DNA from: an uncultured Planctomycetia bacterium
Lineage (GTDB): Bacteria > Omnitrophota > Gorgyraeia > 2-02-FULL-51-18
Direction of reading: 5' to 3'
Assembly (NCBI GenBank): GCA_964606485.1
Contig: CAZSGP010000002.1
Coordinates: forward strand, 74,766-138,765
DNA: 64,000 bases
The notes below the pieces were generated by a model, which was not told the DNA's origin, made no database searches, and was given only the letters and a program-made list of their open reading frames with translations. Below, piece after piece: positions 10,987-22,517 of this stretch. Every line of letters begins with the position of its first letter. Within the stretch, counting starts at the first letter, position 1. A program made the position numbers and the translations under genes.

Positions 10987-13900
10987 TTAAGCGGACGCTC
11001 CAACAAACTGGAGCGCAGTCTGGCGGGCCTTGATCATCTGGTCTATGAGCACGCGATCGACTTTGACGGTAAGCTTAGAATAAAGCGTGGCTAATGAATC
11101 TGAAAAATTCTGCAGCGCCTCAACAACTTTCTTGAGCCCCAAGTCTTTGACGGCTGCGATGCGGTCACTTAAAAAGGATTGGGTCTTATCCGGCAAAGTC
11201 GACAACGCTTCGGGTGAAACTCTAGCAATGATGCGCGCCACAGCAAACAAAGATTCCAAAACTAAAGCACTGTAACCGTCTTTTTGATCCTCAACAGGAA
11301 CTAACGTTAGCGCGAATCGTGCACCAAGCGCCTTGCGTTGATTTTCAGGAACGTGACTATCTGCCAATAATTTTAATAATTTTTCCCGGTGATTTTTGTT
11401 TCCGGCTGTCGTGATAAATACGACTTTGGAAGTTTGAATCGACACATCCCCCTGCCCAATCACCACGATCTGCTCAGGTCCCAGCACAGAGCCTCTTTTT
11501 TGAGCAGCTTCGAGCTGTGGTTTAATAAATCCGATTTTATTTTCACTTTCAGGATTCCCAAAAACTGCCGGATCAATGAGAAGCGCGATAGACGACTCCG
11601 TGTCCACCACCCCTTTTTGCTCAAGCGAATATTGTTTGAGTGCTTTTTGCGCTCCGAGTGCGGCCCTATAAACGCGTCCAAGCTCCACCGCTACTTCCCC
11701 AGCCTGAGCCGTATCCGTCTGACGAAGCGTTTGCACAAGCGGTGCTCTCACGTTTCCTTGCGAAATTCGGGCATTGATTTCTGTCTGCGTAAATGAAATG
11801 GTTTGTATAGCCTCGGGCTTGCTGCCTAGGTTTGCGGTGAAAATTACTTGGGCGCCGTTTGAAGTGGGCTCTACCTTAAAGAAGGAAAGCCTCTGTGAAT
11901 CCGGCTCCCCACTCTCAATCGACATCTCGAGAGGCGTCAACACGCTCACCCCTTTCGCAGTGCTCGCAGCCAAATCCAAAAGAATACTTTGATCTGAATC
12001 CGAAATTTTTTCTGCCCTTGAAAGAGTTTTACTGGCAAATCGTGCGCCGTTTGGTAAAAACGATTCTTTGGCTTGATTGAAATGAAAAGCGCCGGATACT
12101 GCTAACCGCGCGCCACTTGTCGCGTCGTCGCGAGTCTTGGGTGTAGACGATGCCTGAACCTCGTCTTTTTTGTGCCAGAGATTCAACACCCAAAATTTTG
12201 CGCCACTTGGGCTACTGACCTGGACCACTCCGTTTTTCTGAAGCTCCGTGTTTGGCGCTTTAAGAAAGTTGATAAGTATTTCAGCGCGCACGCGAGCTGT
12301 TCCCAGTGCGCTTAAGATATCCCGACCCGCTTCATTTCTATCTCCCGCAAAGTGAGGGTTTAAAGCGGCCTGAGCCATGCCCACGGCTGAAGCTAGCTTA
12401 TTTTTGATGTCGTAATTTCCCAAAAGTTCGTAGCGTGCTCCAAAGCTGACCGTCTGCGCAGTAATTTGTTCGCTAAGGTTTTTGGATTTTGCTTTTTGAT
12501 CAAGGAAATCTATAAGGTCTTGCATTGCTGAATCCGCCTGAGACAAAATAGCCAATTTTTTCTCGTCGCTATTATTTTCAAAGTCACTTAAAAGATTCTG
12601 CGTTTCTTCAATTTTCTCTCGAAGATGTGAAGCGATAGCGCGAGCCTCGACAAGCGCTCGAAGCGTTTTAAAAACCTCGGGCGCAGCATTTTTGTCCGCT
12701 GCCGGCGAAGCGTCGGGCATCTTCTTCTGCAAATCCTCAATCGCCGTGACGGCTAAGGCGTAGATAATGGCGAGCCAAGTGGAGCTCGGGTAGCTCGAAG
12801 AAATACGTGATCTTAGGCTCTCAGCCGAATCGCGACCGTTATGAATGTTATCAACATAAATAGGCCCCAAATTATCCTTGGCAGTAAAACCATTCGCCGC
12901 GCCTTTTTTTGCTTGGTTGATCGCCTGGATCGCTTCTTGTGCGTAACTAACCGCGGCTTCCCTCATATTTTTTTCGTGGGTCGAAGACCAATTTGGAGCG
13001 CTTTCAATTAGACGGATAAATTTTTCTAGAGCGCGGAGATTTTCATCAGCCAACCGCGCTCCCCCTACCGGATGAAGCTCAAACGTATTCAGAGTAGGCA
13101 ACGCCCTCATCCCCTGCTGTCCCTGTCCCGGCTCATCTGTAAAGCTAAACCCGATCACTTCAAAGTCATCCTTGATTTCCGTAATAATCACTCCGTCGGC
13201 CGGAAGCGTTGTAGCTTCGCTAGGGGCCGAGACAACAAGCTGAGTGAGATCATTTTTGAAATATCCAAAAAAACGGTAGCGGATTATAGTCGCGGGATCC
13301 GTTGAAGCGGGTGGATTAAATCTAAAAACAAAAATATCTCCTTTTTTAGAAAATAATCGGGGTGCGACTAGATGAAAGAGCTGCCCCCTAATGTCCATTT
13401 GTTGATAAACGTCTTCGGTCATGACACTGTCCTTTGGACGCTCCGGGTTCGTGCGTGGGTCAAAGAGAATCACGGTTTTATTTTTTTCAGCTTGATCCAA
13501 CGTCTCAGAAACTCCTGGATCAACGCTTAATTTGACGATCGACATCGGAAAGCCAACCGTGACATTGACAATCCCGCCCGGGTCAATGAACGCACCAAGT
13601 TCTCCCCGGTAAGGCATCTTGTCCTTTTGGTAGCCCTCCACAATAATTTTTACGTCTTTCATTTTGTCGCGAATGGCAGCCGGAAACGTCACGCGCAAAA
13701 TGTCTCCCGGCACAAGTTTCACTTGCGGATAAAAATTTAGAGTCAGTGCTGATCCGCTGTAATCCCAATTGTAAAATGACTTTTTACTGTCGTAAGCCTT
13801 CAGAAAATCAGGCAAGCTGACGGGAGTCAGATGATCGCCGAGGATTTGCCAAACACCTTCACGCTCTCTGCTTCTGCCGAAAAAATAAGAAGAAAAAATC

Positions 13901-16900
13901 AACAAAGTTACGGCAAGATAACGAAAAAGAGTTTGGCCCATTCCGGCCGGGCGGTTTTCATCAGCTTTAGCCATCCGCGCACCACTCTCTACTACTAATC
14001 CAGCCGAAGGTTGCACCCTTATTTTTCGTCCCTCAAAATAATCGTTCTCCAGATAAACGCGCCATTCTTTCGGCTGCGTTTCGTCAGAGGCCCGAGTAAC
14101 CACGGTAAATCCAATAGGCCCTAAATGATAAGATAGCTGATCTTGGTTATCATAATAAATTGGCGCAACGGAAATAACATTCTCAATTTTTTTTCGAGTA
14201 AATGTTTTCTGAGACCAAATTGTAATTGGGTGAGAGACGGTCACGGAACTTGGATCGCTTTCATTAAAACCCAAGGCGTACGACACATCACCCTTCTCAA
14301 ACGCTCCGGCGCCCTGCATAAAATAAACGTCAGCTGAATGGGGGTCTAGAAATCGCAAAGCAATCAAAGGAGACCCTGGCCCCATCAAGGATAGTGCCGG
14401 CCGATCCGCTACCCAAGGCACATCTAAACGATCATCGGTAATTCCCAAGCTATTTTTAGCTTTGTGCGTATGAAAATTATATTCAAGAAGAGTTGTCCTG
14501 TCTTCGCCGTGAATAAGGTCCAATGATATAAGTCCGTTTTGCTTTCTTGTATTCTTCAACTCTAGTTTGCGTCCATCCGGCAACACTCCACGATTTATAC
14601 GCCCAATGACACTTTCTGCAAAATCTGAAACTAACCATCGCGCCGCCAAAGATGCTGAGTGATGCCGCTGCTTCTCCCAGTGGGTAGATTCCGTGACCTG
14701 CTCTTCACGCGCCTCCTCCCAATCAGCAGGTACGCCATTAACCGGCTCGCAAATAAACAGCTTCCACGAAACGGGCTCACCGTTACTGTCGATCTGCCAT
14801 TTAAATTGGCTTGGGAGCAGTTGTGCTCCATTTTTTTCTAAAAGCGGGAGTCTCATGTAAGATCCGCCAACTAACACACCCTCTTTAACATTCACCTCTT
14901 CCTTAACTAGCCCATATTTCCGATTGACTTGGATTTCGGCTGACATAAATGCATTTTTATCTACTCGGAAGCTACTATCTTGGGTCTGCCATGCATCCCA
15001 AACGCGAACAAAATCTTTTTCGATTCGTAATAGATACCGATTAAGACCATTCCCCAAAATAACAACCGTGCCATCATCAAGCTTCGCCAACTCTACTTGC
15101 GGTACCTGCTGCCCGGAGATTTCATTTAAACGAGGTCGATACTCATCATCCAGCAATTCGGGCCTTGGCCAATTTTTTTGATCGGAAATTACATGTGGAG
15201 AATGAGCTTCCATGTGACGCAAAAATTCTAAAGATAAGCTATTTTTTGAAACACTTCGATTTAATTTTACACTTTGATAAAACCCGACAGCTCCGGTTAA
15301 AGCCACCGCGAGTACACCAAATAAAATGGGATTAAAATTGTTCGCAAACAGTATAATAGCCGGCAACAACCCCGCTACTCCTACTAGAAACAAAGAACCC
15401 CAAAAAAGAAGTGAGGTGTTAGAAAGCATCTCAGGATCTAGTCGCCAAACGGAATAATTATCTTCTGATTTATTTTCAAAAAATCTCATTGATGCGCTGG
15501 CCAACCTCGCCCCCGTCACAACCGACACACTGGGAGAAACATGGCGAACTATCGGCCCGATCTTATCGGCGGCCGCCCAATAAACTTTATCGCTTTCATC
15601 GACTTTTGAAAGCAGGTTGCCGTATTTTTCAAATTCAGGACGGCGCTTTTTAAACCAATCAAATACGGAGCGAAACGTAGGAATTCCCTGCTCACGCTCC
15701 CTTTTCCCAAATTCTGGCAAGACATCCAGCAAGGCTTTTGCGTCTTCGACCGTGCTTTTTTCGGAGATTTCATAAACCGCATTTCGCATGGCCGGGTATC
15801 TGGGGTCAGTTTTTTTAAGCCTTAGAAATCCCCATAAAAGATAATCAAAAACAATTTCGCGCAAAAGCAGATCTTCGATCTGCTTATCATTTACCGAAAC
15901 CCCTTTCTGGATTTGGGTTTTTGCTTGATCGAGCGGTTTAATCGCGTATGACAATGCAGTTGCGGCCTCCCGAATGTTTCCCCCCAACTCGTTTCGCACC
16001 ACACCGCTTATTTGATGAAGCGTTCCTCTTAAGAAAACAATAGTGTCGTTCGGATATTCATTCGCTATTTTCTTTAGCGCCTTTGCAAATATTTTATCCC
16101 GCTGAATATCACTCGACGCGCTTAGCTCCAAAGCCCTCTTAGCCACCCGAAGGTATTCCTCAGGAGATATTCTTTCGCGAGTCATTGAGTTTAAGATAGA
16201 GTCTCTCTGGAAAGAGGCTGTTTCATAATCTAAGGCGCTTTTAAAATAAAGCTCTCTGTCCTCCCTGGAATAGGTTTCATCTCCTTCTACCAGTAAATGC
16301 TTTATTTTATCCCTATTTCGGAGCAAGACCCCCATAACCCCCCTTTCAAATGAGGAAAGATTACGAATGTCCCTTTCAAAAAAAGCTTGCCGATAAATCT
16401 GCACGTTATAATCAACCGCCCTGTGAAACACGGCTTTAAATGAATCTAGCTGCGCTCGTGTTGCGCGGCCTGTAAAAAGAGCCTCTTTGGTAAGACCAGT
16501 CCTAACCGTTTCCGAGTCTCCTAACAACGCATTCATCTGTACTCCCCCAAACTCAAAGAAAAATGCAACTTGACCGGCCGGAAGAGATTCAAGCTGCTTT
16601 TCTAAAACCATAGCGGCGTCTTGAGCATCAGTCGCGTCGTCATGGGCGGAATAGACCCCGACAAATTTCTGCGGCCGCGTGCCGCTGCGCAACCCAAAGA
16701 AACCCAAGCTCGCCAGTACAAAAACTGAAATGACTGCGAAGAATTTTTGCTTATTCCAAAAACTTATTTTTTTGGATTGCTGAACCCCATTAGGGCTGTC
16801 GAATAATTGATCAATCGTGCCTAAGTATTCTTTAGGCTCCGTCTCTTTATAAATGCTCTGAGAAGGGACAAAACTAATCACATTTTGATCGGCCATCTCA

Positions 16901-16947
16901 AAAGTAAACCGTATCAATCCATCACTAGGCAGTCTCTCCAAAGTCAC
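10987..16947 (-). CDS. giant hypothetical protein (1986 aa). N-terminal TM, possible Tiki/TraB/GumN-like region, three further TM helices mid-protein, long helical C-terminal half
   Basis: Uninterrupted 5.96-kb ORF with a GTG start at 16947; an in-frame ATG also exists at 16896. TM segments: FFAVISVFVLASLGFFGL; LLFWGSLFLVGVAGLLPAIILF…ILFGVLAVALTGAVGFY; LFRYLAVTLLIFSSYFFG. The motif IVFLRGTLHQISG resembles the C-terminal GxxH motif of TraB/Tiki domains. This is weak, eyeball-level evidence. Confidence 0.6.
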   Translation of the reverse strand: MTLERLPSDGLIRFTFEMADQNVISFVPSQSIYKETEPKEYLGTIDQLFDSPNGVQQSKKISFWNKQKFFAVISVFVLASLGFFGLRSGTRPQKFVGVYSAHDDATDAQDAAMVLEKQLESLPAGQVAFFFEFGGVQMNALLGDSETVRTGLTKEALFTGRATRAQLDSFKAVFHRAVDYNVQIYRQAFFERDIRNLSSFERGVMGVLLRNRDKIKHLLVEGDETYSREDRELYFKSALDYETASFQRDSILNSMTRERISPEEYLRVAKRALELSASSDIQRDKIFAKALKKIANEYPNDTIVFLRGTLHQISGVVRNELGGNIREAATALSYAIKPLDQAKTQIQKGVSVNDKQIEDLLLREIVFDYLLWGFLRLKKTDPRYPAMRNAVYEISEKSTVEDAKALLDVLPEFGKREREQGIPTFRSVFDWFKKRRPEFEKYGNLLSKVDESDKVYWAAADKIGPIVRHVSPSVSVVTGARLASASMRFFENKSEDNYSVWRLDPEMLSNTSLLFWGSLFLVGVAGLLPAIILFANNFNPILFGVLAVALTGAVGFYQSVKLNRSVSKNSLSLEFLRHMEAHSPHVISDQKNWPRPELLDDEYRPRLNEISGQQVPQVELAKLDDGTVVILGNGLNRYLLRIEKDFVRVWDAWQTQDSSFRVDKNAFMSAEIQVNRKYGLVKEEVNVKEGVLVGGSYMRLPLLEKNGAQLLPSQFKWQIDSNGEPVSWKLFICEPVNGVPADWEEAREEQVTESTHWEKQRHHSASLAARWLVSDFAESVIGRINRGVLPDGRKLELKNTRKQNGLISLDLIHGEDRTTLLEYNFHTHKAKNSLGITDDRLDVPWVADRPALSLMGPGSPLIALRFLDPHSADVYFMQGAGAFEKGDVSYALGFNESDPSSVTVSHPITIWSQKTFTRKKIENVISVAPIYYDNQDQLSYHLGPIGFTVVTRASDETQPKEWRVYLENDYFEGRKIRVQPSAGLVVESGARMAKADENRPAGMGQTLFRYLAVTLLIFSSYFFGRSREREGVWQILGDHLTPVSLPDFLKAYDSKKSFYNWDYSGSALTLNFYPQVKLVPGDILRVTFPAAIRDKMKDVKIIVEGYQKDKMPYRGELGAFIDPGGIVNVTVGFPMSIVKLSVDPGVSETLDQAEKNKTVILFDPRTNPERPKDSVMTEDVYQQMDIRGQLFHLVAPRLFSKKGDIFVFRFNPPASTDPATIIRYRFFGYFKNDLTQLVVSAPSEATTLPADGVIITEIKDDFEVIGFSFTDEPGQGQQGMRALPTLNTFELHPVGGARLADENLRALEKFIRLIESAPNWSSTHEKNMREAAVSYAQEAIQAINQAKKGAANGFTAKDNLGPIYVDNIHNGRDSAESLRSRISSSYPSSTWLAIIYALAVTAIEDLQKKMPDASPAADKNAAPEVFKTLRALVEARAIASHLREKIEETQNLLSDFENNSDEKKLAILSQADSAMQDLIDFLDQKAKSKNLSEQITAQTVSFGARYELLGNYDIKNKLASAVGMAQAALNPHFAGDRNEAGRDILSALGTARVRAEILINFLKAPNTELQKNGVVQVSSPSGAKFWVLNLWHKKDEVQASSTPKTRDDATSGARLAVSGAFHFNQAKESFLPNGARFASKTLSRAEKISDSDQSILLDLAASTAKGVSVLTPLEMSIESGEPDSQRLSFFKVEPTSNGAQVIFTANLGSKPEAIQTISFTQTEINARISQGNVRAPLVQTLRQTDTAQAGEVAVELGRVYRAALGAQKALKQYSLEQKGVVDTESSIALLIDPAVFGNPESENKIGFIKPQLEAAQKRGSVLGPEQIVVIGQGDVSIQTSKVVFITTAGNKNHREKLLKLLADSHVPENQRKALGARFALTLVPVEDQKDGYSALVLESLFAVARIIARVSPEALSTLPDKTQSFLSDRIAAVKDLGLKKVVEALQNFSDSLATLYSKLTVKVDRVLIDQMIKARQTALQFVGASA

Positions 16948-17025
16948 CTTAGCAACCTGCCCGTAGCGCCGGGCATCATTGCTGATATGCGCTTTGAGAG
17001 CTTTTACGATAGACCCCGCAACAGG

Positions 17026-20000
17026 TTATTGCTTTGAGGACTCGACAATAGGGCCAGCTAACCGCGCGCCTGACCCAAATTGTGGTTTCGAAGGATCATT
17101 AAGGCCTTGTCTGCTCGCATTCCGCGCATATTCCTTAGCCTCACGTTTAATCTTAGCAGCTAATGCAGGGTTGATTTGCTCCTGAATTTTTGCTAAGCCA
17201 GCTTCTATCGCACCGTCGGTCAAATTAGGACGACCATCAAAAGCTGATGCGCTTAATCTGACTAATTCATCGTGCAAGCCTGTAAATGTCTCTACGCCTT
17301 CCTTGATTCGAGTGGCCACAAAACTAGCTATAGCACTCGCAAGAGGGGGGTAAGCTTCCACAGTGATTGGCGGACCATTGGAATCTGTAGCTTTTTCAAA
17401 TCTCGGATGCTCAAGCATTAACCGAGCATAACAATAGGCATAATACAACCTTTGAGCAACACCATCTTTGCGAAGAACATCTTTAGGCTCTTCTAGCATT
17501 GAAAAACTTTCGTCGTTGCGATCTAAAAATGATTCGGGTTCATTTTGAAGGGGAACGATTTGCTCTGAATTGAGTTCAGCTATTAAGTCCCGGAGTAAAT
17601 CCAGTGGATCCCAAGCATCCGATCCCAGAAACCGGCGCTGTATACTTGCCAGCTCGGCCGCGCGAGACCATGGAACTGGATACTCTTCCCAATTGTCCAA
17701 CACAAAACCAACTAACGACTCGAAGTCTGGATCTGCCATCAAATCTCGTCTTAACTTAGTTTCCGAAAACGGTGTATTCATTATCCGCATCAGACCCCGA
17801 CCAACTTCTTTTTCTAAAATACCCCTGGGAGCATCTTCCAGCAGCTCTGCGGGAGCACCATTCGGATAGACTTGTCTAAAATATGCCAAATTTCTTCGTA
17901 AAATGCGCACCGCTTGCTTTCTTTTATCGATCTCTATTTTGACATTTTGGGCTATTTGAAGTAACGCTTGGCAATCATTCGTTCGCAAAAGCGTCAGCGG
18001 AGAGGAAATAAAAAAACTTAAGCCAACGTTGTAATATTTTTTATCAAGAAGTAATTGCCGGTAGAAATCAATTTTTGATTCCTCTAAGGAGAATGGATCT
18101 GGGAGCAAAGAGGTGATTGTGGTTAATTCCGCGACAAGATTTGCAATTATTTCTGCATCCTTATTAACTCGATAACTTGATTTAAGGTACTCGTGGAGTG
18201 TATTTAGCATTTCAAGACTCACATACCTCTGCAAATCGAGTAACGTAGCCCTGTATAAAATTTCGCCTAATTCATCCCTTGCTTCTTCCCTTTCTTGTGG
18301 AGCTTTTGAAGTCAATCTAACCTTCAAGTCTTTATCATTATCTTTTTTCTCACCTATCATAGACGCGACGGTCTTATCTTGGAACCGACTGATCGCCTCC
18401 CTTTCTTGAGATTGAACGGTATCTAATAACTCTTGAAACCGATCTTCTAATCCACTGATCAATTGCCTACTTTTTCCACTAAGCGCTGGATAATAACCCT
18501 CTTCAACAACTAACTCCAAATTCAAAATATATTTACGAAACTCTAATCGAATCTCAAGGAGATCCGCTGACTTTAGATATAGTGAATTCCCTGTAAGAAG
18601 GGAATAATTAAGCTCTGAAACAACGTAGAGTAGATTTGCCAGTCCATCTTCAATTTTATACACATCTTGATGAGGGGTAGATTTCCATCGATCAAATATA
18701 TCCCGTAAGGTTCCTCTTTTGGTTATCGCCTCCCTTATTTCTTTTACCTCGTCAGATTCGTCCGCCATCCTCGCCCCGGCCTTTTCTGCAGCCTTAACCC
18801 CCGGCAGGGTATTAAGAGACACTAAAAATTGAATGCCCGTTCCTTGCTTTTCTGCGGCCTCTTCATAATCCTTGTCAATTTTAAAACCCCTTTCCTTTAA
18901 ATAAACGCGATAAAACGAAATCTCCGATTTTTTGCTGGCGACCCAAGTTACATTTGTAATTTTTTTATCTCTTAGATTTTTAAAAAATGCATCTAATAAA
19001 AATGACCCATGACTAGCTCTTTTAACCTTAACGGCTATCGCATCCATTTCGAGCGGCTTACCGCGCACTGCGCTAGAAGCAATAAATCCACCAAGAGAAC
19101 CATCTGGTTGAATTAACAGATAATGATCCTTATCTTCCAAATCATACCCCCATGCTTCAGCGGATTGTGGGCTATAGTCCCCTCGCCCCTTGAAAGCCGC
19201 GCGCTCTAAAATTGATAATTTTTCGGCCGCGTCATCCAGAATCACCTGAAAATCCTTTTCTTTTTGTAAGCGAGAATAAATTACTTTCCACTCCACAACT
19301 TTTCCAACTCCCTGTTTTTCTAAAATGGTGGGCAGTTGTTCGTATGGGATGGAATTTATCAACAAAAGTTTTTGGTTTTCTGTGTTTGTGCCGGAAAGCC
19401 GCGCTCCACTATCCACCCCCCTATCTTGAAACGCCTCCGAAACTTTTGCGTGATTGGCTTTGATTTGCTCCGCCAATCTCGACGCAACAAGTCGATCTGT
19501 AATTTCTGGAAGCCAATCCTCGTCCGCACTTCGATACATTTCAGCTAGAGCGCGTGCCGTCTCAAAGTTTTCACGTTTTCCGCTAGCCATTTGAATTTCG
19601 GAGGGTTTCAATCCCTCAAGAGGCTCAAGCAGCACCTTTTCGTACTTCGCCTGATTGGTTTCCTGCGTCACCTTCGGGGTTAAGACGATGTAAGAGTATC
19701 CGCTCTGCTGAAAAAGTTCTTTGAGATGTTCGGTATGATATCCACCTGTAATCAAAACGACTGCGTTGTCATTCCCGCGCAAGCGGGAATCTTGTGGTTC
19801 TGATCCCCGCCTTCGCGGGGATGACAGTTCTTTTTCAATATTTTTCAAAAATGCCAAATCTCTCTGATCCACCGAATCGTAAAAATCTTTGAGCGCTTGG
19901 CTTCCGGTTTCCAATAAATCTTTGTACGAAACCAAATCTTCAAAGTACCCGGTCTCGATGAGCTTTTTGTTCAAGAATGCCAAATAAGAGACGGTCGCAA

Positions 20001-21279
20001 AATCAGGTTCGTTGGCTTGAAACGAACGAAACTCTTCATTCGTCATTTGAATGTTGTAGGCCGTTTGAAGCAGATGAATGTACCGGTCTATGGCGTGGAT
20101 TAGCAGCGTGTCATTGCGAGAAGCCGAAGGCGACAAAGCAATCCCGTTCTCAGAGCGAGATTGCTTCGCTGTGCTCGCAATGACGGACTGATAAACTTCT
20201 TCTTCAAACTGAGCCTTCTCGTCTGCAAGCTTGCTCAGCTCAATAGAAGTAAACTCTTTCAAGTATTCTTCATAGCGAATTAAATTGGAATAAGGCTTGA
20301 GAGTTAAACCCTTTTCTCTAGCGCTATTTAAAGTATTTTGAAAGTAGCCAAATAAAGACATGCGGTCGTTGTAAATCTCATTTTTCTTGGCGAGATAATC
20401 CGCCAGATTCTGCCCGCCCTTTTTCTGAAGCTCCACCACGAGCGAGGCGAGCTCTAAGTTCGCTAGGTTAAAATCGAGAGACGCTTCTTTGGCTTGAAGG
20501 TTTTTTAGCTTTGAAAGATTGGGGTAGGTGGAAAGAGCGGGATTGCTTCGCTGCGCTCGCAATGACAAGCCCGCCTTTTCAGCTAAATCTAAAAGCCTCT
20601 TAAAACTCGTTTCAAAATTTCCATCTTTATCTTTTTCGTAATTCAGTAGTTCCTTCGGGTAAATTTTATTTTTCGCTTTTTGGAGTGCGGATTGGATGGT
20701 CTTTAAATATTCCAGCACCTCTTGCCGTGTGGCCGCGAGCTTCGAATACGCCTTGATGCTTTGCGCGTACAACGCTAGATTTTCGATTCCGATAATCTGA
20801 ATCGGGTGATTCGTGGTGAGATTTAAATACTCCTCACCTGAAATCTGCGCGTCCATCAAAAGGGTTTTCGCTTTTTGTTCCAGCGTGTTTTTGGAAATAG
20901 CATTTCGGACTTCAGTGAGCGAAACATCTCCCTCGCCGCCTTCAACGAGAATGGTGGATACGCCGTATCGCGTAATAATTTGGTCGAGCGCACCCGCAAG
21001 ATTTTGTTGTCCTGAAAAATTGGAGTGCGGATCTTGGATGTGGATCAGTAGGGGCGCAGTGCCTGCGCCCACGCCCACATGAATCTCCTTAAGCGCGCAA
21101 AAATCCATCGGCGTGACAAATTGAGCTGGATTTTGAATGAGCCCGGCAAGTTCCGCCGTCTTCGTGGGAGCCGGGGACACAGAAATTCCAGGGGCGGCAT
21201 AGGCCAATTCCTGAAAGAGGAAGGCCGCTATGAGACTTGCGGATATTAGCCTTATATTAAGTTTTTTCTTATTGGGCAT
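17026..21279 (-). CDS. giant hypothetical secreted protein (1417 aa). Signal peptide, Tiki/TraB/GumN-like N-terminal region interrupted by in-frame palindromic elements, GNAT-like segment, long helical C-terminal region
   Basis: ATG start with N-terminal signal peptide (LISASLIAAFLFQELAYAAPG). Motifs KEIHVGVGAGTAPLLIHIQDPHSN and VVLITGGYHTEHL resemble Tiki/TraB GxxH motifs. Residues ~700-790 (…GFIASSAVRGKPLEMDAIAVKVKRASHGSFLLDAFF…SFYRVYLKERGFKI) resemble GNAT motifs A and B. The family calls are inference. Confidence 0.6.
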   Translation of the reverse strand: MPNKKKLNIRLISASLIAAFLFQELAYAAPGISVSPAPTKTAELAGLIQNPAQFVTPMDFCALKEIHVGVGAGTAPLLIHIQDPHSNFSGQQNLAGALDQIITRYGVSTILVEGGEGDVSLTEVRNAISKNTLEQKAKTLLMDAQISGEEYLNLTTNHPIQIIGIENLALYAQSIKAYSKLAATRQEVLEYLKTIQSALQKAKNKIYPKELLNYEKDKDGNFETSFKRLLDLAEKAGLSLRAQRSNPALSTYPNLSKLKNLQAKEASLDFNLANLELASLVVELQKKGGQNLADYLAKKNEIYNDRMSLFGYFQNTLNSAREKGLTLKPYSNLIRYEEYLKEFTSIELSKLADEKAQFEEEVYQSVIASTAKQSRSENGIALSPSASRNDTLLIHAIDRYIHLLQTAYNIQMTNEEFRSFQANEPDFATVSYLAFLNKKLIETGYFEDLVSYKDLLETGSQALKDFYDSVDQRDLAFLKNIEKELSSPRRRGSEPQDSRLRGNDNAVVLITGGYHTEHLKELFQQSGYSYIVLTPKVTQETNQAKYEKVLLEPLEGLKPSEIQMASGKRENFETARALAEMYRSADEDWLPEITDRLVASRLAEQIKANHAKVSEAFQDRGVDSGARLSGTNTENQKLLLINSIPYEQLPTILEKQGVGKVVEWKVIYSRLQKEKDFQVILDDAAEKLSILERAAFKGRGDYSPQSAEAWGYDLEDKDHYLLIQPDGSLGGFIASSAVRGKPLEMDAIAVKVKRASHGSFLLDAFFKNLRDKKITNVTWVASKKSEISFYRVYLKERGFKIDKDYEEAAEKQGTGIQFLVSLNTLPGVKAAEKAGARMADESDEVKEIREAITKRGTLRDIFDRWKSTPHQDVYKIEDGLANLLYVVSELNYSLLTGNSLYLKSADLLEIRLEFRKYILNLELVVEEGYYPALSGKSRQLISGLEDRFQELLDTVQSQEREAISRFQDKTVASMIGEKKDNDKDLKVRLTSKAPQEREEARDELGEILYRATLLDLQRYVSLEMLNTLHEYLKSSYRVNKDAEIIANLVAELTTITSLLPDPFSLEESKIDFYRQLLLDKKYYNVGLSFFISSPLTLLRTNDCQALLQIAQNVKIEIDKRKQAVRILRRNLAYFRQVYPNGAPAELLEDAPRGILEKEVGRGLMRIMNTPFSETKLRRDLMADPDFESLVGFVLDNWEEYPVPWSRAAELASIQRRFLGSDAWDPLDLLRDLIAELNSEQIVPLQNEPESFLDRNDESFSMLEEPKDVLRKDGVAQRLYYAYCYARLMLEHPRFEKATDSNGPPITVEAYPPLASAIASFVATRIKEGVETFTGLHDELVRLSASAFDGRPNLTDGAIEAGLAKIQEQINPALAAKIKREAKEYARNASRQGLNDPSKPQFGSGARLAGPIVESSKQ
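19768..19825. repeat. 58-bp double-hairpin palindromic element inserted in-frame in the 1417-aa gene (encodes SSPRRRGSEPQDSRLRGNDN)
   Basis: gtcattcccgcgcaagcgggaatc-ttgtggttct-gatccccgccttcgcggggatgac. Two perfect 8-bp-stem hairpins in inverted orientation with gtcat…atgac termini. Confidence 0.75.
20110..20184. repeat. 75-bp nested palindromic element (gtcattgcgag…ctcgcaatgac) inserted in-frame in the 1417-aa gene (encodes …VIASTAKQSRSENGIALSPSASRNDT…)
   Basis: Terminal 11-bp inverted repeat gtcattgcgag / ctcgcaatgac. Inner inverted repeats caaagcaatc / gattgcttcg. Confidence 0.7.
20535..20566. repeat. partial (right-half) direct copy of the 20110..20184 element, 30 of 32 nt identical to 20153..20184, also in-frame
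   Basis: gagcgggattgcttcgctgcgctcgcaatgac compared with gagcgagattgcttcgctgtgctcgcaatgac. Confidence 0.7.
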
Positions 21280-21356
21280 AAATTTCGAGTATACCGTCCC
21301 TTTGGATCAAGTATACCCGAGATTTAAGCGATTACAAGTCTAGCTACCAACTCAAC

Positions 21357-22517
21357 TTACTGGCGCTTATTCTGTCCTTGACCACCCTGTTTAGCGCCTT
21401 TGCCAGCACCCTTATTCGGGTTATTTTGGGCTTGCCCATTGTTCGGATTGCCCGGTCCGCCCTCTTGGCGATTATTGTTCATCTGGTGGACTTGCTCTTG
21501 ACGATTGTCTCTCCGCTCCTGCATCTGTGCGTCTCGTGGACCATTGGGGCGATCCATCGGCCCGCCTTGACCCCGATCTCTAGGGCCTTCGCCAGGTCTA
21601 TTCATCTGGGGGCCACCTTCTTGTTTGAAGCGAGGACCGCGATCAGCTGAATTATTTTTCATTCGATCTAATTTTTGACCCGGCTCACGATTAGCAGGAT
21701 TCTGCTGTGCTCTTTCTTTTAATTTTTGCTCAAGCTCCTTTTGGCGACCGGGAGGGGCGGTATTTTTTAAAAATGCTTTCTCAGGATCTTTGCGCTGGCC
21801 GTTTTCATAAGCACGCTTCACCTGATCAATGCCCTGAATTTTCCCACGACGACCCATTCCCTCAACTTGCTGAATTTTCTTGTCGATGCCGCCTTGCATA
21901 AGCTTGCCGCGCTCAAATTCTTTCGACTCCATTTTGACCGGCGCAATCGGACGATCCCCTCTAAATTTCACGGCGGATTTTTCGTTGTTTTTAATGATTT
22001 GTGGGGTTTCATCCACACTGCCTTTTTCATTCATTCCAAAAACATAAACATCTGATTCCGAAAAGTTATAAATGTTCGTTTCACCGTTCTCAACTGCGGT
22101 GCGATATTCGGTTCCACGCGCGGCGGCAATGGCCGTTGGCGTTTCAACCGTAAAGCTCGACTCTGACGGGAGGGCTTTTAGTTTTGCGTAGATCCCACCC
22201 TTGTCCATTTTAAGATTCACCGGAAAAATAGATTGAATGCTGACGCTTGATTTCTCTTCGATGCGAGCGACGTTTTTCCAGTCACTGTCAAACGCCAAGT
22301 CCACCGAACCGCCTTCCGCAACCTCGACCCGGTCATCGGCCTTTAGAATGTCGCCTTCCTTGATAAGAGTTTTACCGCCATCGCCAATTTTAAAGGCGTT
22401 CCCTTCCACCGTCATCACCTCGCACTGATAGTCCTGATCTTGCGCGAAAACACTGTCATTGCAAAAGGGGGCTAAAATTAGTACGGCTAGACTCACGGCT
22501 TTCATCAAGGCTTTCAT
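21357..22517 (-). CDS. secreted FecR-domain protein with a long Q/N/G/P/R-rich low-complexity C-terminal tail
   Basis: Signal peptide MKALMKAVSLAVLILAPFCNDSVFA. A FecR-like beta-sandwich pattern (KEGDILKADDRVEVAEGGSVDLAFDSDW). The last ~130 aa are compositionally biased (…GPRDRGQGGPMDRPNGPRDAQMQERRDNRQEQVHQMNNNRQEGGPGNPNNGQAQNNPNKG…). Confidence 0.65.
   Translation of the reverse strand: MKALMKAVSLAVLILAPFCNDSVFAQDQDYQCEVMTVEGNAFKIGDGGKTLIKEGDILKADDRVEVAEGGSVDLAFDSDWKNVARIEEKSSVSIQSIFPVNLKMDKGGIYAKLKALPSESSFTVETPTAIAAARGTEYRTAVENGETNIYNFSESDVYVFGMNEKGSVDETPQIIKNNEKSAVKFRGDRPIAPVKMESKEFERGKLMQGGIDKKIQQVEGMGRRGKIQGIDQVKRAYENGQRKDPEKAFLKNTAPPGRQKELEQKLKERAQQNPANREPGQKLDRMKNNSADRGPRFKQEGGPQMNRPGEGPRDRGQGGPMDRPNGPRDAQMQERRDNRQEQVHQMNNNRQEGGPGNPNNGQAQNNPNKGAGKGAKQGGQGQNKRQ

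Follow-up and report, generated by a model that had tools for sequence, protein, structure and literature searches.

Two adjacent giant open reading frames (ORFs) in a 64,000-nucleotide stretch of an Omnitrophota genome (positions 74,766 to 138,765 of contig CAZSGP010000002.1, assembly GCA_964606485.1, hereafter the window) very probably belong to a large family of modular proteins built on a single plan, in which a signal peptide is followed by a conserved N-terminal domain (the head), by units made of a pentapeptide motif plus a module of variable sequence, and by a last motif that opens a conserved C-terminal domain (CTD). The first of these ORFs, B, provides the signal peptide and the head, the second, C, provides the CTD, and both are probably the halves of one gene interrupted by a stop codon. 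Head, tail and motif, the latter 50-350-fold enriched and bracketing domain-sized modules, define a family of ~10^4 protein clusters. On the grounds of motif statistics and of analogy with known systems, we tentatively read the pair as an interrupted member of an exported modular family whose proteins would be processed at the motif, a composite reading to which we give slightly less than an even chance. The family looks undescribed and is absent from Pfam; by the labels of the records it is confined to the Omnitrophota, ultra-small and host-dependent bacteria with enormous and mostly unannotated proteins. An original prediction made from the letters of this stretch had noticed three co-oriented genes, a secreted FecR-domain protein (A) followed by the two giants, all of which are present on the minus strand as described. 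It also noted that the giants lack any obvious known enzyme signature on reading; neither B nor C, whole or in slices, matched a Pfam or NCBIfam family. The recurring motif and the conserved CTD were missed.

The head domain

A word-seeded search with B retrieved 22 relatives, several of them named Candidatus Omnitrophota, which share with B residues 1-554 only, everything downstream being different. The signal-like hydrophobic segment at the N-terminus of B, a protein first described as secreted, ends at an S-Y-[SA]-A-P junction that is conserved in the homologues. In the alignment of 22 heads the residues Q82, D83, H85, N87, Q91, E113, G114, E150, E166, R473, D474, G512, G513 and H515 (B numbering) are invariant. 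A profile of the head run against 1.84 billion representative proteins recovered 9,793 clusters at E<=1e-3, of which 6,616 pass E<=1e-30, with B itself at E 5.6e-181. Among the best 150 of the 9,793 clusters, no more than about 90 residues separate the start of the head from the N-terminus, and the proteins range from partial fragments to 7,364 aa. Internal heads were looked for in ~240 family sequences and none was found. A scan of one genome per species gave 572 confirmed loci, 80 of which were retained. Nearly all of these 80 are labelled Omnitrophota or 'uncultured Planctomycetia' and one comes from a metagenome-assembled genome (MAG) labelled 'Eisenbacteria', with eight to ten or more copies of the family in single MAGs. 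The label 'uncultured Planctomycetia' is borne by many of the genomes with the family (TPA assemblies) and 'Candidatus Eisenbacteria' by one; since all the other labels are Omnitrophota, both names may have been wrongly assigned.

The B head was modelled with AlphaFold2 at good confidence (pLDDT 84.9, pTM 0.81). In this model, helices lie on either side of a central parallel beta-sheet to form a small alpha/beta core, which is split by a helical insert of ~330 residues. The structural neighbours of this model (entry and score in brackets) are Bcr135 (2rad, 8.5), ChaN (2g5g, 8.0), the erythromycin esterase EreC (6xcq, 8.0), HopBA1 (5t09, 8.0), Bcr136 (2qgm, 7.6), a TraB-family protein (8bqs_DQ, 7.6) and the MARTX effector RRSP (5w6l, 6.0), the same proteins that the RRSP structure paper lists as the TIKI superfamily (PMC6254334). 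The catalytic 2His/2Glu set of RRSP consists of E3900, H3902, E3930 and H4030 (PMC6254334), and its counterpart in the B head would be D83-x-H85, E113 and the H515 of a GGYH sequence, invariant in the 22 sequences and with the same spacing of 28 residues between His and Glu (H85-E113 against H3902-E3930). As far as a predicted model and sequence motifs allow to say, the B head is a member of the TIKI/TraB/EreA/ChaN superfamily at the level of fold and motif. The Tiki/TraB-like GxxH region predicted for B was thus well seen, because the structural neighbours and the His/acid motifs agree with it, and both HIQDPH and GGYHT are invariant across the family. Besides the Asp in place of the first Glu and the lack of a match to a member profile (see below), two features set this head apart from the known members of the superfamily (TIKI, TraB-PrgY, the erythromycin esterases EreA/B/C and Bcr135/136, ChaN, HopBA1 and RRSP): the long helical insert that splits its core, and its constant fusion to the start of a modular protein of several thousand residues, where it follows a signal peptide.

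The all-helical insert (model residues ~141-460, B aa ~168-487) bears weak, non-significant structural likenesses to the periplasmic sensor bundles TorS, McpZ and PilJ, and to the alpha-pore-forming toxins ClyA, AhlB/SmhB and YaxA, which may be generic resemblances between helical bundles only. Moreover, the coding sequence of the B head carries palindromic elements as in-frame insertions (window 20110-20184, 20556-20566 and 19765-19825, minus strand). The inverted repeats GTCATTGCGAG/CTCGCAATGAC delimit an element of ~75 nt, whose terminus occurs a third time at 20556-20566. Two GC-rich hairpins, ccccgc-gaag-gcgggg and ttcccgc-ttgc-gcgggaa, lie in a second inserted segment. The insertions translate to '...AKQSRSENGIALSPSASRND...' and '...SSPRRRGSEPQDSRLRGNDN...', and two of them fall in loops that the model gives with low confidence. 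Homologues show different inserts at the same loops of the head, for example IPAKAGI...SRFRGNDN and ATKQS...GLAMT.

The pentapeptide, the modules and the tail

Downstream of the head, B contains three copies and C six copies of a motif of the type GAR[LMF][AS], and no other real gene of the window has any, the two further six-frame matches being out of frame or in non-coding frames. In 158 family proteins GAR[LM][AS] occurs 479 times, compared with 9.6 expected from shuffles (50-fold), and 474 of these 479 occurrences lie downstream of the head, mostly spaced by 200-1000 aa. An unbiased count of k-mers gave GARMA (349 times over expectation) and GARLA (161 times) as the top 5-mers. Across 81 related loci the motif reaches a density of 1.27 per 1000 aa in head-bearing ORFs vs 0.039 elsewhere, and the headless ORFs rich in motifs, other than C, are each simply cut by the boundary of the locus. 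The distance from the head to the first motif is 58 aa in the median of the family and 69 aa in B. In the position-specific profile the information is contained in the five core residues alone, with a mild preference for S/A at -1, and therefore we regard it as a short linear motif and not as part of a domain. In lineages without the canonical GAR[LM]A, the variants ARMT, SRMT and SRMA are enriched instead (e.g., the JBLINS loci L057, L060, L072 and L073, and the proteins P0014-P0023), so judged by sequence the conserved core is small-Arg-Leu/Met-small, with lineage-specific variants. The codons differ synonymously between copies (GGA/GGG/GGC/GGT for Gly; CGG/AGG/CGA for Arg), which indicates selection on the peptide and not on a DNA site, and an origin at the DNA level as a recombination site or repeat element was rejected for this reason. 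A signal-peptidase-type (AxA) reading was also discarded: it fits the nine copies of the window loosely, and position -3 is not conserved in the homologues.

What lies between the motifs varies from protein to protein. Pfam domains found in the homologues include methyltransferase, metallo-beta-lactamase-fold, cNMP-binding, PGM/PMM, LOG, HAD and HEAT domains (methyltransferase in P0005, Lactamase_B_2 plus cNMP-binding in P0006, HEAT and HAD in P0012, LOG in P0043, and PGM/PMM in P0020, which has no canonical motif), and in the seven homologues scanned they occupy the stretches between motifs, with no motif interrupting them. In B, the segment 625-834, previously read as GNAT-like, gave sub-threshold matches only, DUF2824 being the best in Pfam (E 0.11) and the ARD1 acetyltransferase 4pv6 the best acetyltransferase among the matches to PDB sequences (E 0.76). 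No significant enzyme signature appeared in slices of 200-570 aa of B and C, nor did phmmer find any homologue of their inner modules among ~240 family proteins, which suggests that the cargo evolves very fast. As a separate observation, residues ~965-1149 of P0009 correspond to an intein splicing domain (PF14890, E 7e-19) within one cargo module.

The last ~350 aa of C align with the C-terminal ends of homologues of B, as in a BLASTP match to the CTD of P0006 (E 4e-4). A CTD profile matches C with E 8e-46, its position 1 falling on the motif and the match reaching the last residue, and after iteration it places the domain at the extreme C-terminus of 53 sampled proteins, with position 1 exactly on GAR[LMF]A in most of them. 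The conserved end of the family reads ...[R/K/Q]-A-[V/I]-G-[A/S]-[A/S]-A-COOH, and an [A/S/T]-A end is found in 100 of 157 family proteins and in 20 of the 29 complete genes of the related loci. The AlphaFold2 model of the CTD (pLDDT 45.3) is too poor to interpret.

One interrupted gene or two

B and C were originally taken for two separate genes, and for paralogues. The second idea found no support in a direct comparison, where the best BLASTP match of B against C reaches E 0.088 and does not lie between the N-termini. As for the first, B and C are in the same reading frame, with one in-frame TAA and then 26 sense codons between them. B ends in a non-canonical ...SSKQ, 10 residues past a GARLA motif that stands 13 codons before the TAA, and lacks the CTD; C carries motifs, the CTD and a canonical end (...FVGASA) and lacks a canonical head. 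Signal peptide and head are thus found in B and missing from C taken alone, and the CTD with its [AS]-A end in C and missing from B, so that the whole plan is complete only if B and C are one unit. Once joined, they make 3,430 codons with exactly the plan of the family and a typical length. The coincidence of frame alone is weak evidence, about 0.1 as we estimate it, and it is because the two architectures are complementary that we consider one interrupted gene the probable explanation. In this regard, family genes with non-canonical ends regularly continue in a frameshifted or same-frame ORF, with a single in-frame TAG in the case of L054. Such ends occur in 10 of the 29 complete family genes of the related loci (L017, L044, L048, L054, L066, L068, L075, L076, L078 and L081), most of which have an overlapping ORF in another frame or a same-frame continuation behind them. 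Family genes would thus often be disrupted or turned over, or else misassembled. This B+C copy would then be an ordinary, probably broken, family member.

Several observations pull in the opposite direction. The 20 kb that include the junction are identical in an independent Logan assembly of SRR12487046, so the TAA is reproducible. C has possible starts (GTG/ATG), and the hydrophobic helix at 68-86 could be a signal anchor. Other hydrophobic segments appear in a hydropathy scan at 517-535 and 541-559, and more weakly at about 1003-1025, which makes 3-4 hydrophobic helices where four widely spaced transmembrane (TM) helices had been predicted. Also, the Tiki/TraB-like start that was claimed for both giants survives in C as a marginal match: hhalign aligns C 197-312 to the head with a probability of 40% and E 3e-4, and hmmsearch aligns C 231-311 with 4.5 bits, both alignments covering QRD and RGTLHQ, in the RD...GGxH part of the head. 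Internal heads having never been seen in the family, nor any internal duplication from which this stretch could derive, it would suit an N-terminal position. On this basis, B and C could be separate functional paralogues with their own TIKI-like N-termini, the former secreted and the latter membrane-anchored, forming with the FecR protein a system of three genes. We see this as somewhat unlikely, given that B and C share no significant similarity, that the head-like match is marginal, that B ends without the CTD or the [AS]A tail that most family proteins keep, that every other headless ORF rich in motifs is truncated by a locus boundary, and that linkage to FecR is not conserved (see below). 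The possibility of C being an independent, divergent member of the family is likewise the less probable one; no homologue of C was found, either for the whole protein or for aa 1-480.

The in-frame stop, the frameshifts or stops that break about 10 of the 29 complete family genes in related loci and the three palindromic insertions within the B head would also be expected if B and C were decaying remnants of a pseudogene, with no current function and with motif and domains left as relics. This is very unlikely in our opinion: frames of 1417 and 1986 codons remain open with no further stops, all the invariant residues of the head and the canonical tail are intact, and the insertions are in frame, in low-confidence loops, and at the same loops where intact homologues carry theirs.

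Proposed processing at the motif and its alternatives

Under the reading of B and C as one exported modular protein, a mechanism can be proposed. The Sec signal peptide would lead to the export of a polyprotein, and the pentapeptide [G/A]-[A/S]-R-[L/M]-[A/S] would be a proteolytic site for the release of the modules. The most likely protease would be the head with its His/acid set, acting in cis, and the conserved head and tail would form a chassis for export and processing around a variable middle, the payload used by these host-dependent bacteria. A signal of five residues with no flanking conservation, ahead of unrelated, domain-sized modules, would be expected of a site recognised by one enzyme, in the simplest case a processing protease. 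The signal peptide, together with the host dependence described for the phylum, suggests an exported payload. Sequence-specific endopeptidases with a TIKI fold are indeed known, such as RRSP (PMC6254334) and TIKI1, by which Wnt3a loses its eight N-terminal residues (PMC8191133). In our scheme the preferred bond would be R-[L/M]|[A/S], like the small-Leu-small sites described below, and G-A|R the alternative. The cut of TIKI1 in Wnt3a lies between Leu and Ala. In its most complete form, this proposal would mean thousands of self-processing secreted polyproteins, in which the TIKI-fold head cuts each motif and so sets free a mixture of enzymes or effectors particular to the lineage, while the CTD, with its ...A-A-COOH end, directs export or delivery, something that we find possible but rather doubtful.

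A parallel can be drawn with the MARTX toxins, whose effector modules are separated by cleavage at small-Leu-small sites (PMC2900308). Both have conserved N- and C-terminal chassis, variable and unrelated modules in between, and short Leu-centred sites separating them, and the MARTX effector RRSP has a TIKI fold (PMC6254334). The likeness between R-[L/M]-[A/S] and small-Leu-small is an analogy of sequence only, and there are differences. No RTX/glycine-rich repeats or C80 cysteine protease domain were found with Pfam in B, C or seven homologues; the motif of the family always places an Arg at P2 (for a cut after Leu), preceded by Gly-Ala; an N-terminal Sec signal takes the place of the C-terminal signal of type I secretion; and the phylum and the presumed targets are others. 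Viral polyproteins and the C39 processing of double-glycine leaders also share a short recognition peptide repeated between functional units, whereas here there is no viral context, no C39 domain in these proteins and no leader-peptide pattern upstream.

Several points weigh against cleavage of the motif by the head. The Pfam profiles TraB, Ere and ChaN do not match the head, whole B has no Pfam or NCBIfam match at E<=1, the profile of 22 heads found nothing among PDB sequences and a Foldseek search of the head model gave no significant match in the PDB. Asp83 stands in the place of the first Glu of RRSP, and the TIKI superfamily also holds esterases and non-enzymes (EreA/B, ChaN, PMT; PMC6254334), so that the head need not be a protease. 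The helices of C, if they span the membrane, would leave motifs on either face of it, and a single protease could hardly serve both. In some members canonical motifs are scarce or absent and variants of the ARMT/SRMT type are found, and the flanks of the motif are rich in Ala/Leu/Glu/Arg and not in Pro/Ser/Gly, for which reason the motif may sit in helices instead of exposed linkers. Moreover, residues 603-669 of P0007, just past the head, contain runs of 3-5 copies only 10-40 residues apart, and P0043 and P0125 carry a GARLA just 17 residues from the C-terminus, inside the conserved tail helix. Clustered and near-terminal motifs are hard to reconcile with a simple processing of one cut per module.

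Some of these same data would be accounted for if the motif were a recognition or structural element kept in the mature protein, such as a helix N-cap or docking handle for each module, a place where the Arg is modified, or a tag for an export or assembly machine, the giant remaining intact as a surface-anchored multi-enzyme scaffold. The composition of the flanks is helix-like, the low-confidence model of the CTD makes residues 2-11 helical, the near-terminal copies of GARLA fall within a terminal helix, and the clusters of P0007 and P0043 would yield tiny fragments if all were cut. This explanation seems to us somewhat unlikely, because nothing is conserved beyond the five residues and the modules that follow are unrelated, a pattern that typifies sites recognised by a single external enzyme and not elements of intramolecular packing, and the spacing of the motifs matches domain-sized units.

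The motif could also be a processing site for another protease (a C39-type enzyme cutting after G-A, a periplasmic housekeeping protease, or an enzyme of the host or prey), with the head devoted to an esterase activity, to the binding of haem or other ligands like ChaN, or to host attachment through its helical insert. G-A is an accepted P2-P1 pair of the double-glycine type. Peptidase C39 domains have been reported as recurrent in the giant proteins of Omnitrophota, the TIKI superfamily has members that are not proteases, and the insert matches, weakly and non-significantly, bundles of sensors and alpha-pore-forming toxins. We consider this unlikely, since the positions upstream of the motif lack the hydrophobic periodicity of double-glycine leaders, Pfam scans of B, C and seven homologues detected no peptidase domain, C39 or other, and the motif co-occurs strictly with the head.

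Giant proteins of Omnitrophota have been described by West-Roberts et al. 2023 and by Nielsen and Lui 2026, in catalogues that cover proteins of >=10,000 or >=30,000 aa, describe their Pfam content and recognise classes such as 'Archaeovorins', dockerin-type and 'multi-enzyme metabolic cluster'. Whether these giants act whole or cut has been asked, and the cleavage points were called unknown (West-Roberts et al.). Our family has in common with them the phylum, a signal peptide or TM helices, a largely unique sequence and, in the homologues, tiled unrelated domains (methyltransferase, GNAT, HAD, PGM/PMM, HEAT), the same kinds of Pfam domains as in the 'multi-enzyme' class of Nielsen and Lui 2026; B and C themselves have no Pfam domain. 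The difference is in size, with about 3.4 kaa for B+C and 1.2-7.4 kaa for the relatives in the sample, below 10,000 aa. There is no mention of a GARLA-type motif or of a conserved head in either of the two papers, the terms looked for varying between texts, and no conserved tail came up in them, the tail not being searched by name. The motif is a candidate for the first concrete cleavage points in giant proteins of Omnitrophota. If processing is true, it would be a new bacterial polyprotein strategy; in the complete form given above it would also serve effector delivery, with nothing equivalent described, and would tell if these giants are cleaved and at which points; if false, the motif remains as an unexplained and strongly selected short linear signal. 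In practical terms, the family features give a rule by which giants can be divided for annotation and structure prediction, they name the peptide bonds to seek in metaproteomes, and they point to a few residues (H85, E113, H515) to mutate. With respect to the undescribed system that was originally suspected at this locus, the proteins are uncharacterised and their family looks undescribed, but a family of about ten thousand clusters is not a system specific to it.

Gene A and the surroundings of the locus

The coordinates of all the features are collected in the table.

Table. Features of the A-B-C locus in the window (all on the minus strand; residues numbered within each ORF)
Feature	Residues	Position in window	Strand	Remarks
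ORF A	386 aa	21357..22517	-	secreted FecR-domain protein with Q/N/G/P/R-rich C-terminal tail; lies beside the family unit but is not conserved with it
ORF B	1417 aa	17026..21279	-	signal peptide, head and two cargo modules; no family CTD
Sec-type signal peptide of B	1-28	21196..21279	-	...LAYA|AP; sequence reading and hydropathy scan
Head domain of B	~37-556	19612..21171	-	TIKI/TraB/EreA/ChaN-fold alpha/beta core (predicted) with helical insert of ~330 aa; D83, H85, E113, R473, D474, H515 invariant
B motif 1, GARLS	625-629	19393..19407	-	69 aa past head end
Cargo module B1	630-834	18778..19392	-	segment predicted as 'GNAT-like'; no significant family match
B motif 2, GARMA	835-839	18763..18777	-
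Cargo module B2	840-1403	17071..18762	-	orphan sequence
B motif 3, GARLA	1404-1408	17056..17070	-	ten residues remain before stop codon
B/C junction		16948..17028	-	single in-frame TAA (17026-17028) plus 26 sense codons; identical in Logan assembly
ORF C	1986 aa	10987..16947	-	GTG start; 3-4 hydrophobic helices; six GAR[LMF]A motifs; family CTD but no canonical head
Head-like stretch of C	231-311	16015..16257	-	marginal; RD...GGxH half; hhalign, hmmsearch
C motif, GARLA	479-483	15499..15513	-
C motif, GARMA	989-993	13969..13983	-
C motif, GARLA	1296-1300	13048..13062	-
C motif, GARLA	1612-1616	12100..12114	-
C motif, GARFA	1634	12034..12048	-	start of CTD
CTD of C	1634-1986	10990..12048	-	starts exactly at GARFA 12034-12048; tail ...FVGASA-COOH 10990-11007
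C motif, GARFA	1875	11311..11325	-	inside CTD

The gene upstream of the giants, A, agrees with its first description as a FecR protein with a signal-peptide-like N-terminus and a tail of low complexity. Pfam FecR (PF04773) matches residues 63-148 with E 1.4e-5 and 25.9 bits (cutoff 24), the Q/N/G/P/R-rich tail occupies ~130 aa behind the domain (residues ~255-386), and the N-terminal half has a sub-threshold similarity to models of the Leptospira proteins Lsa33/Lsa19/LipL45. The long tail distinguishes A from FecR or LipL45-like secreted proteins, as does the fact that FecR genes are not conserved beside the family genes: according to phmmer, only two of the 81 related loci have one near a head-bearing gene, and in L046 the match is weak. 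For this reason FecR was rejected as a conserved partner. On one side the three genes are flanked, as foreseen, by Ysc84/SYLF and Sod_Cu genes, and on the other by an ORF at the position of lysS. The term 'island' is a weak one for this region, where the GC content over B falls only to 0.42-0.45 vs about 0.47-0.49 around it.

The other locus with a FecR gene, L001 (GCA_945877765.1, contig CAMDWQ010000001.1, 1-26486), contains three head-bearing giant genes within 26 kb, with toxin-antitoxin-like genes (YhaV; AbiEii) between them, and there a pair of FecR and BBP2_2 genes lies directly upstream of a family member of 2502 aa that has an FBPase_3 domain.

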